From: a virus
IMG/VR virus record: IMGVR_UViG_2928611649_000001
Location: 1-64,000 of that record
Strand: one strand, 5' to 3'
Length of the DNA: 64,000 nucleotides
The notes below the pieces were generated by a model, which saw only the letters and a list, made by a program, of their open reading frames with translations, did no database searches and was not told where the DNA came from. The position numbers and the translations under genes were made by a program. Shown one piece after another: positions 4,785 to 6,330 of this stretch (its first letter is position 1; the number at the start of each line of letters is the position of its first letter).

Positions 4785-5155
4785 GCCGCCACCTCGATCA
4801 GTTCCATCCGGATGCTGACCTCGTTATCGAAGTCTATCCGGTCGGCGCTCACCAGCTTGATGCCGTCCGATCCGTCCAGCAGCGGCCAACCTTCAACACC
4901 TTGCACGGCGAACTCGTGCACCGCGCCAAGGCCGCTGGAGATTTCTTCCGCCAGCGCCCGGCGGCAAAGCATGTTGAGCACAGCGACCACAACATCGTCG
5001 TCTGCTTCCGCCAGCCGGTCGTCGGCGCCGCTCCAAAACTCGTTAATCAGCGTGCACAGGGCGATCATCTCGTCGCTCTCAGGCGCGCGCACGTCGACGA
5101 CGACATCGCTACAGGTATCGTCGAAGGTAAGGGTGTATCGGGCCCAGGTAATCAT
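4781..5155 (-). CDS. Acidic hypothetical protein
   Basis: 124 aa, in-operon coupling. Confidence 0.4.
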   Translation of the reverse strand: MITWARYTLTFDDTCSDVVVDVRAPESDEMIALCTLINEFWSGADDRLAEADDDVVVAVLNMLCRRALAEEISSGLGAVHEFAVQGVEGWPLLDGSDGIKLVSADRIDFDNEVSIRMELIEVAA

Positions 5156-6330
5156 GCTGCCACCCCGGCCACGTTCGCCACCACGTAGACGCCCTGCGTG
5201 CTGCCGACCACGTCGGCGGCTTCCATGGCCTGCAGCAGGCTGGAGGCCCGGTTGTAGGTAATCCGCAGCACGCGCTGCACCAGCGATATCGACGCGCGGT
5301 CCTGCTCTCGCACCAGCGCCACGGCGGCCGGGTACAGTGGGTCGGTGGCACTGCCATCGCCATCCGGGATACCACCCAGCCGCATCACTGCGCGCTGCGG
5401 CTGCACCGGCTCGTCGCCGGCCGCCGGCCGCGTCACCGGAGGCTCGCCCTCAGCCACGCCGCCCAGCGCCTCGACCAGGTCCGCCAGCAGCTTGGCCAGC
5501 TCGCCGCTGACCAGCGCGAAGTCGCCATCGAAGCGCTCAGCGTCGTCCTTGGCGTAGTTTTTCTCCGTCAGCACATCCAACAGCTTCACCGACTTGACGG
5601 CCAGGCTCTGGTCCAGCACGAAGCTGATCTTGCTATCCCATGTCATGGCCAGGCGGATGCACTGCTTCCCGGCGGCGATGTGGCGGCGCAACTCGTCCGC
5701 CTCGAGCGTGTGGCGCTTCCACTGCACCTGGGCCTTGCTCTCGCCGGTCGCCTGCAGGGTGGCGTCCATGTCGACCGTGAAGCCGGCTGGCGCATCGTCC
5801 GCCTGCAGCCACTCGGTCATCACGCCCACCGGTGAGCGCTGCACGCGCAAGCTCTCGACCGGGAACTTGTCGACGGCCTTGAGCAGCAACCTGATGACCT
5901 GGTCCGCCTTCGCCGGGCTGGCCGCGCCCACCACCAGCCATCCGTTGACCGGGTCGATCCAGACCCAAGTGCTGTCGCGCTTGGGGAATGCGCGCGGCAG
6001 CAGTTCGTCGGCGACGCGCTCGCGCAACTCCTTCATCGCCTTCTTGCCGGGCGCGAAGCCTTGCGCTTCTTCCATCTCGGCGGCGCGCGCCTTCGTCACC
6101 TGGTTGATGACGGCCGCCGGAAGCACCTTGGACTCGGTCGTGAGCTTCAGCAGGAACTGGCCGTTGATGACGTGGACCAGCTCGCCGGCCGGGCGCGGCG
6201 GCTCCCAGCCCTCGCGCAGCAGTTCGTTGCTGCCGGCCGGCGCGAAGGCCTGCTGCGCCAGCATGCGGTTGAGGGACTCGGCCGAAGTCAGGAAGCCGGG
6301 CAGGCGGTACATCTGAAGATTCTTAAACAT
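5152..6330 (-). CDS. rdgC: RdgC-like recombination-associated protein fused to a C-terminal FtsK-gamma winged-helix domain
   Basis: The N-terminus [10 protein letters not shown]... is RdgC-like over ~300 aa. The C-terminal ~60 aa ([47 protein letters not shown]) matches the FtsK gamma KOPS-binding domain. Confidence 0.6.
   Translation of the reverse strand: [392 protein letters not shown]

Follow-up and report, generated by a model that had tools for sequence, protein, structure and literature searches.

The 64,000-nucleotide window analyzed here (positions 1 to 64,000 of the IMG/VR record IMGVR_UViG_2928611649_000001) is, as a whole, a lambdoid prophage, with an integrase gene at 1-1110, early-left genes on the minus strand and late genes (terminase, tail) on the plus strand. 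This report concerns one of its early-left genes, here called rdgC-gamma, located at 5152..6330 on the minus strand. It is a single, uninterrupted open reading frame (ORF) of 392 amino acids, starting with the ATG at 6330-6328 and ending with the TGA at 5154-5152, and its product carries two Pfam domains, RdgC at the N-terminus and FtsK gamma at the C-terminus. Direct reading of the sequence showed an AAGG 8-11 nucleotides upstream of the ATG and overlaps with both neighboring genes. The stop codon TAA (6325-6323) of the reverse transcriptase (RT) gene of a diversity-generating retroelement (DGR) lies within an 8-nucleotide overlap with the rdgC start (6323..6330, minus strand), and the rdgC stop codon overlaps the start codon of a DUF2528 gene (4781-5155; Pfam E=1.3e-14) in an ATGA (5152..5155, minus strand). 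A first-pass annotation, made from the sequence alone, had placed the gene directly upstream of the DGR RT on the same strand; the two genes do adjoin on the minus strand, but the RT gene, which runs from 7513 to 6323, precedes rdgC. A 100% identical protein of Duganella sp. HSC-15S17 is recorded in GenBank under the name RdgC.

Residues 2-291 (5458..6327, minus strand) matched the RdgC family PF04381 from profile position 3 to 297 of 298 (E=1.8e-103, 346 bits against a cut-off of 25), and the NCBIfam RdgC subfamily model NF001463 gave 402.5 bits against a cut-off of 324. A PDB sequence search aligned this domain end to end with the RdgC structures 2OWL and 2OWY (E=3.5e-57 and 1.4e-46; E. coli and P. 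aeruginosa). An AlphaFold2 model of the product, built from an alignment of 48 homologues, was of moderate quality (mean predicted local distance difference test, pLDDT, of 69), with the N-terminal half of RdgC and the gamma domain well predicted. Foldseek matched the model to the horseshoe/toroid fold of 2OWY_A (E=1.8e-23, template modeling score, TM, of 0.74 on the target) and of 2OWL (TM 0.69-0.70). The E. coli protein has essential dimer-interface residues at the gate (F120) and at the horseshoe (E218 and K227), together with R118 and H222 (PMC2965237). In the PDB alignment R118, F120, E218, H222 and K227 correspond to R113, F115, E213, H217 and K222 of the phage protein, positions that are invariant or nearly so among the 48 homologues. 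The equivalent of E. coli Q212 is H207, and the segment aligned to the basic fingertip residues R97, K98, K100 and K101, on which E. coli RdgC depends to load onto circular DNA, contains three basic residues (K96, K97 and K100) shifted by 1-4 positions. Judged by sequence, the RdgC toroid domain is complete within the first 291 residues and has retained its dimer-interface residues at both gate and horseshoe. The first-pass annotation had likewise matched the N-terminal ~300 amino acids to RdgC, and the hidden Markov model search and the structure prediction agreed with it. Cellular RdgC has a ring structure, binds double-stranded DNA (dsDNA) non-specifically and inhibits RecA (PMC2965237, PMC11077077).

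The RdgC domain is followed by a flexible linker of ~36 residues rich in Pro, Gly and acidic residues (residues 292-327; 5350..5457, minus strand) and predicted with low pLDDT; in the model, residues 291-320 have pLDDT <50 and no secondary structure. Linkers are not conserved in the homologues (length ~20 to 120 amino acids), and helical modules are inserted in some of them. One class of ~480-490 amino acids (P0008, P0011, P0023, P0100 and others) has a helical linker insert of ~85 amino acids (…ERAVGLSAELYKVRA…LLVAAVEILEP), and a second linker type (P0126, P0128, P0160, P0184) has a motif of ~30 amino acids of the form AL..L…G.T.T…G..V.L. P0017 and P0020 have the linker insert and no gamma domain.

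The tail itself (residues 328-385; 5176..5349, minus strand) is predicted to be an FtsK gamma winged helix of three helices and a short beta-hairpin wing. Residues 328-380 matched PF09397 (E=1.1e-16, 60.7 bits against a gathering score of 30.6), and the PDB sequence search matched the tail to the FtsK gamma structures 2VE8 and 2J5O (P. aeruginosa and E. coli; E=3e-11). The model has helices at 333-343, 348-355 and 359-371 and strands at 375-378 and 381-384, with pLDDT ~75-89. Against 2VE8 and 2VE9 it gave TM 0.76-0.86 and a root mean square deviation (rmsd) of 1.0-1.7 A at 52-55% identity, and the three-helix winged-helix fold was recovered with all of 2VE8, 2VE9, 2J5O and 2J5P (TM on the target 0.72-0.86, rmsd 1.0-2.5 A, 55-64 columns). 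The first-pass annotation had assigned the C-terminus to FtsK gamma unless no significant hit to that family was found; since the C-terminus significantly matches PF09397 and also the fold of 2VE8/2VE9, the assignment stands, and the C-terminal peptide quoted there was also correct. Matches of the strength found for the two domains greatly exceed what chance would produce. The Pfam match covers profile positions 2-54 of 63, and therefore leaves the wing unmatched; in other fusions PF09397 scored 69-87 bits over profile positions 3-61 or 3-62. The FtsK/SpoIIIE motor domain PF01580 had no Pfam match in the product, and the NCBIfam FtsK equivalog model matched only residues 325-380, with 33.7 bits against a cut-off of 1566. 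On sequence grounds this product, called 'DNA translocase FtsK' in some records, has no motor domain and is not a translocase. When the gamma tail alone was used as the query, the homologue search returned only four proteins of 77-128 amino acids, all with that name. One public annotation of the same genome names the C-terminal 77 codons (5152-5385; P0121) as a separate 'DNA translocase FtsK' protein, and related prophages have comparable 'FtsK' entries of 102-128 amino acids. These short entries appear to be annotation splits of fused genes, the reading frame being continuous in the window.

In order to examine the distribution of the fusion, we surveyed 80 rdgC loci from one Oxalobacteraceae genome per species, checking them by tblastn with the proteins of the window. 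All 21 gamma-bearing loci were flanked by homologues of the early genes of the window (RecT, RecE, p485, p241, p315, NinB, p236), that is, they are prophages. The other ~59 loci matched residues 2-295 only, at 72-75% identity, lacked the gamma domain and had phage neighbors in no case; they are chromosomal rdgC genes. Since every gamma locus and none of the gamma-less ones is phage-flanked, the gamma tail is the mark of a phage-borne RdgC in this sample. One of the chromosomal loci (L039) belongs to Duganella violaceipulchra HSC-15S17, the strain of the 100% identical protein. Its gamma-less RdgC has 297 amino acids, ends in ...EALGGEAKA and is 74% identical to the phage copy in amino acids and 78% in nucleotides; the phage protein runs on past the host end (...EALGG) into the linker and the winged helix. 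Neither of two genes considered as conserved partners of rdgC-gamma was retained: the DUF2528 gene was present only in the window and not at the other fusion loci, and a 236-amino-acid phrog_874 gene occurred in 13 of the 21 fusion loci without constant adjacency.

Beyond this survey, nearly all of the best 120 database matches (Duganella and Janthinobacterium) had both Pfam domains, and in an exhaustive search 41 of the best 150 representatives of 50%-identity clusters were fusions, with identity down to 34%; named members of the fusion clusters include Achromobacter and Spongiibacter. An RdgC relative was present in 304 phage genome records; in 163 of these it spanned 80% or more of the query, a figure that sets the maximum number of fusions among them. 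The fusion was confirmed with Pfam in P. aeruginosa phage PA8 (Hollowayvirus, F116-like), in Achromobacter phage CF418P1, where it is annotated as 'DNA translocase', and in Vibrio phage PS14A.1. Gamma-like segments occurred in 120 phage records, in many cases as the tail of an RdgC and in others as a small 'FtsK gamma domain' protein, and at least five PHROG families contain such a segment as well. The fusion had been regarded as unusual in the first-pass annotation, a view that does not survive these counts: judged by sequence, phage-borne RdgC in the dataset usually takes this form and, being widespread, the fusion would be under selection rather than accidental. We found no description of an RdgC-gamma fusion in the literature on RdgC with FtsK, gamma, KOPS (FtsK orienting polar sequences), phage or F116. 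As far as found, then, the fusion is undescribed and unstudied there, while GenBank has an entry for the protein ('RdgC') and databases contain many examples of the architecture.

Both domains resemble their host counterparts. The RdgC domain encoded in the window is 74-75% identical to chromosomal RdgC of Oxalobacteraceae, and the PA8 domain shares 78% identity with P. aeruginosa RdgC (2OWY) and only ~35% with the domain of the window. In a neighbor-joining tree of 173 sequences, of which 52 were fused, fused and unfused RdgC proteins were interleaved, with 34 parsimony changes. As proxies for host FtsK we used C-termini of Oxalobacteraceae/Burkholderiales FtsK, fetched with a synthetic probe (motor end plus gamma). 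The gamma cores of Oxalobacteraceae fusions have the Burkholderiales FtsK signature (QRHLR) and are 72-80% identical to it, and the PA8 gamma has the Pseudomonas signature (QRKLK), being 72% identical to P. aeruginosa gamma against 57-59% for Burkholderiales gamma. The resemblance of both halves to the host therefore points, at the sequence level, to repeated capture from hosts or to ongoing exchange with host genes, and two lineages are too few to separate the two.

Concerning the residues of the gamma domain, we compared positions, in E. coli FtsK numbering, among 112 Oxalobacteraceae fusions, 41 diverse fusion clusters and 120 Burkholderiales FtsK proteins. Work on E. coli FtsK showed that the single substitutions R1300A and E1303A weaken KOPS recognition and leave Xer activation unimpaired, and the 'blind' mutant is R1300A/E1303A/E1306A (PMC2680272). 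The contacts of gamma with XerD are Q1288, R1289, R1292, I1293, G1294 and N1296; the 9-mer 1289-1297 suffices for activation, and the surface that meets XerD forms part of the one that meets DNA (PMC5052618). Essentially invariant positions in the 120 FtsK proteins were Q1288, R1289, R1292, N1296, R1300, E1303, E1306, G1318 and R1320. The 41 fusion clusters retained Q1288 (100%), R1289 (98%), N1296 (98%), E1303 (90%), E1306 (93%), G1318 (100%) and the wing R1320 (98%), with R1300 in 76% and R1292 in 49%; in the Oxalobacteraceae fusions R1292 was an arginine in 70%. About half of these Oxalobacteraceae fusions have a derived wing that is two residues shorter (TQGxY, with R1320 replaced by Y) and retain R1300 and E1303. 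Since the family keeps the KOPS-specific residues, most of its members probably read a KOPS-like G-rich octamer.

The protein of the window belongs to the TQGxY short-wing sub-lineage, and its recognition helix H3 (residues 359-371; 5218..5256, minus strand) is atypical. The four KOPS-reading positions R1300, E1303, E1306 and wing R1320 are here S364, Q367, E370 and Y, so that only one of the four is kept. Among the 112 Oxalobacteraceae fusions, S at 1300 and Q at 1303 were each found in 2 and T at 1294 in 1; the protein is an outlier at T1294, S1299, S1300 and Q1303, each seen in 1-9 of the 112, and its nearest homologue (81% identical) is canonical at these four positions. It keeps the XerD-contact residues Q1288, R1289, R1292 and N1296 (Q352, R353, R356 and N360) and the invariant S1283, S1285, Q1288, R1289, Y1295, N1296, R1297 and G1318. 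Its activating 9-mer reads RVLRITYNR against RQFRIGYNR in E. coli, with 6 of 9 residues identical and T in place of G1294. The tail had been called near-canonical in the earlier reading, which is inaccurate with R1300 as S, E1303 as Q, the wing Arg as Y and a Pfam match that stops short of the wing. The accompanying description of a sequence-reading winged helix-turn-helix suits the family in general but not this copy, which lacks R1300, E1303 and the wing arginine. Because of the S, Q and Y at 1300, 1303 and 1320, this gamma is more likely a non-specific or re-targeted tether to DNA or protein than a KOPS reader.

Upstream of rdgC-gamma, the integrase-proximal early-left recombination operon of this lambdoid Duganella prophage (8542..13819, minus strand; Pfam NinB, PHROGs phrog_149/434 and phrog_561) encodes a RecT-like annealase (12683-13819), a RecE-like exonuclease (11916-12686) and NinB (8542-9003), all on the minus strand. 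This operon with RecT, RecE and NinB, the translational coupling and the like context in the 21 related prophages support the reading that we favor, with a probability of roughly 0.5: the product would be a phage early-operon RdgC ring that limits RecA and uses its gamma domain as a DNA tether. The best-supported mechanism, inferred from the biochemistry of RdgC and gamma domains, is as follows. RdgC-gamma, like cellular RdgC, would form a dimeric ring around dsDNA and, upon induction or infection, would keep the activity of RecA filaments and strand exchange in check, leaving recombination to the RecET/NinB pathway of the phage. Each subunit of the dimer would contribute a flexibly tethered gamma domain, and the two could serve as extra DNA anchors that capture the duplex and aid ring loading or retention, following the same domain logic as FtsK (ring motor, linker, gamma). 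KOPS would be the target of gamma in canonical members, while in the protein of the window gamma would be non-specific or re-targeted.

Several observations weigh against this proposal. The AlphaFold2 model is only moderate in quality, with residues 180-262 poorly modelled (pLDDT <60). Three of the four DNA-specific residues are missing from the gamma domain of the window, and the tether role consequently leans on generic winged helix-turn-helix properties. The most strictly conserved residues, Q1288, R1289 and N1296, bind both DNA and XerD (PMC5052618), and their conservation therefore cannot separate the two roles. FtsK needs three gamma domains per KOPS and monomeric gamma binds weakly (PMC3384302), while a dimer gives two. 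The relatives P0017 and P0020 are naturally devoid of gamma, and we found in the literature no biochemical or genetic work on any RdgC-gamma protein. The genomes show no KOPS signature tied to the protein either: the window contains 10 KOPS where dinucleotide shuffles predict 7.8, which is no enrichment, and control temperate phages without RdgC-gamma were also polarized, with strand counts of 6:0 in F10 (L093) and 6:1 in D3 (L092).

The KOPS GGGNAGGG had a strand count of 10:0 in the window, all copies being on the plus strand irrespective of gene orientation. Fusion-bearing phages likewise showed polarity regardless of gene strand and without enrichment in Achromobacter phage CF418P1 (L089+L090; 13:0) and Pseudomonas phage PA8 (L085+L086; 1:10), and the 21 related prophage loci gave 3:28. 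The fusion-bearing Vibrio phage PS14A.1 had zero KOPS against 3.5 expected, and the transposable phage D3112 and phage KS9 had a single KOPS each. Polarity as a sign that RdgC-gamma reads phage DNA was rejected, given the polarized controls and counts not above expectation; it is uninformative for RdgC-gamma because phages without the gene are polarized and the fusion-bearing Vibrio phage has no KOPS. The polarity of integrating phages probably reflects selection for fit with the host chromosome and FtsK polarity when integrated.

The main rival to the RecA-limiting ring, though an unlikely one, is that gamma engages host XerD instead of DNA, either activating XerCD off-septum (for instance resolving dimers of chromosome or phage that arise through phage-stimulated recombination) or titrating XerD or competing with FtsK, with RdgC serving to localize the protein on DNA. 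All four side-chain contacts (Q1288, R1289, R1292 and N1296) are present in the protein of the window, as are six of the nine residues of the activating peptide, and the residues that it has lost, R1300 and E1303, are dispensable for Xer activation (PMC2680272). Moreover, XerCD is activated by gamma provided in trans or as part of other fusion proteins (PMC5052618), and the gamma cores carry the FtsK signature of the host (QRHLR for Burkholderiales, QRKLK for Pseudomonas), as a species-specific recognition of XerD would require. XafT of the satellite phage TLC-phi provides a precedent for a phage-encoded Xer activator (PMC6744903). However, one of the contacts, R1292, is variable in the fusions (R in 49% of the diverse clusters and 70% of Oxalobacteraceae) and invariant in the 120 Burkholderiales FtsK proteins, G1294 is T in this protein, and the ~90-98% conservation of the KOPS-only residues E1303, E1306 and wing R1320 is unexplained by XerD binding alone. 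In addition, the phage has its own tyrosine integrase, no dif-like XerCD site was found in the window with up to 3 mismatches to the 22-nucleotide core, and recent capture alone can explain the tracking of the host.

Two further explanations are considered doubtful. RdgC-gamma might be a phage mimic of FtsK, built repeatedly from two host genes, that couples RecA inhibition to KOPS/XerCD-dif resolution; it could act as a RecA-blocking ring loaded at KOPS, or could activate or titrate XerD off-septum during phage development. The fact that in at least two lineages, Oxalobacteraceae prophages and P. aeruginosa F116-like phages, both halves are nearer to RdgC and FtsK gamma of the host than to the counterparts in the other lineage suggests, under such a mimic, that recurrent capture or gene conversion arose from the need to match host partners. 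Conversely, in this prophage gamma might be a decaying appendage under relaxed selection, the protein working as a plain phage RdgC, which would rank below XerD engagement. The outlier residues at T1294, S1299, S1300 and Q1303, canonical in the nearest homologue, the PF09397 score below the range of other fusions and the natural gamma-less variants P0017 and P0020 are in line with such decay; yet the reading frame is intact across gamma, the model gives its hydrophobic core and fold a pLDDT of ~75-89, and all eight invariant residues listed above are retained.

Less probable still is that the phage protein heterodimerizes with host RdgC and re-targets or poisons it via the gamma tail. The RdgC domain tracks the host in two independent lineages (74% identity to Duganella RdgC for the window, 78% to P. 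aeruginosa RdgC for PA8, ~35% between the two) and cellular RdgC has the same interface residues, but the idea is purely inferential and recent gene capture explains the host similarity equally well. Finally, a role as a DGR accessory aiding the adjacent RT in mutagenic retrohoming, suggested by the direct, translationally coupled 8-nucleotide overlap of the two genes, is effectively excluded by the comparative data: just 2 of the 21 fusion loci have an RT homologue at a distance of 6 kb or less, no RT adjoins the gene in isolated fusion phages such as PA8, CF418P1 and PS14A.1, and in Duganella sp. Leaf126 (L024) the ninB stop lies ~15 nucleotides from the rdgC start, the exact insertion point of the 2.2-kb cassette found here.

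Compared with cellular RdgC (2OWL, 2OWY, PF04381), the phage protein has the same full-length toroid domain with its gate and horseshoe residues, at 74% identity to the host RdgC, and would be expected to share the binding of dsDNA as a dimeric ring and the inhibition of RecA. It differs in its location in a prophage RecET/NinB operon and in ~100 extra C-terminal residues that are absent from the ~59 chromosomal loci. With FtsK gamma (PF09397; 2VE8/2VE9, 2J5P, 5DCF) it shares the three-helix winged helix, 52-55% identity to P. aeruginosa gamma, the XerD contacts and the G-x-G-S-x-x-DPLY junction of the FtsK linker, whereas it lacks the translocase motor, has S, Q and Y at R1300, E1303 and R1320 and a wing two residues shorter (TQGxY). 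Bacillus phages Sam46 and Sam112, whose small terminase has an N-terminal FtsK_gamma, and stand-alone phage gamma proteins likewise represent a host-derived gamma recruited by a phage DNA-handling protein (PMC8190038). The Sam46/Sam112 protein differs in its partner (Terminase_2 instead of RdgC), in the N-terminal instead of C-terminal position of gamma and in the host phylum, and the authors of that paper stated that the role of the phage gamma genes is unknown (PMC8190038). XafT is also a phage factor substituting for FtsK gamma in XerD activation (PMC6744903); however, it lacks homology to gamma, and TLC-phi uses XerCD for its integration, whereas the prophage described here encodes an integrase of its own and has no dif-like site. 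Lambda RexA, with its RdgC-like fold, is another phage protein on an RdgC scaffold, dimeric and with non-specific DNA binding (PMC11077077).

The in vivo role of RdgC is poorly defined, and the RdgC-gamma family is large and experimentally tractable, with isolated fusion-bearing phages at hand (P. aeruginosa PA8 and the F116-like group). Its tail separates phage-borne from chromosomal RdgC in the dataset and recurs in phages of beta- and gamma-proteobacteria with both halves host-like, and the family may reveal how phages manipulate RecA and possibly FtsK/KOPS/XerCD. The protein of the window is itself more ordinary, a slightly degenerate member of the family that is unrelated to the neighboring DGR.

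The DGR cassette (6323..8524, minus strand; Pfam RVT_1, bAvd and Lcl_C) spans 2.2 kb between ninB and rdgC. It comprises, on the minus strand, a target gene of 136 amino acids with an Lcl_C-type fold (8114-8524), which contains the variable repeat VR1 (8128-8234), followed by the bAvd gene (7734-8093, Pfam), the template repeat (TR, 7454-7560) and the RT gene (6323-7513, Pfam RVT_1). The TR/VR alignment had 10 mismatches, 9 of them at TR adenines. Because ninB and rdgC are adjacent in L024 and an RT is near only 2 of the 21 loci, the cassette is an insertion and RdgC-gamma is no DGR accessory. The candidate link to the DGR was thus rejected, conserved linkage with RT, Avd and TR not being found in the comparative loci. 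A further prophage (L001) has the order RecT-like, YqaJ, DUF1367, RdgC-gamma and integrase, with no DGR.

The DGR has three VR copies (8128-8234, 16516-16624 and 24520-24625), all in early or regulatory regions of the prophage and none in tail-fiber genes. A second ORF with the Lcl_C fold (16502-17134, minus strand) contains VR2 at its 3' end, and this copy is 89% identical to TR; VR3, at 24520-24625 on the opposite strand, is 87% identical. When positions 4000-9000 of the window were compared with a phage collection, the only sizeable nucleotide match was the DGR RT region (6565-7756), which was 73% identical over ~1.2 kb to Pseudomonas phage Cruim01 (PP179333.1 33572-34756), a P. syringae phage in which the gene is called 'retron-type RNA-directed DNA polymerase'.

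Elsewhere in the window, the early-left operon encodes a radical-SAM protein (14638-15654, minus strand), and two methyltransferase fusions are found on the plus strand, a C5-cytosine methyltransferase fusion of 798 amino acids (27221-29617) and a fusion of helicase-C with an N6/N4 methylase of 879 amino acids (32405-35044). The late operon contains a low-GC island at 50000-52000 (52% against ~63%). Its ORF at 50709-51899 (minus strand, 396 amino acids) gave only a sub-threshold match to Peptidase_M48, and this region is probably a moron. Two tRNA genes, tRNA-Ser(GCT) and tRNA-Gly(TCC), lie side by side at 39289-39455, just upstream of the packaging genes.

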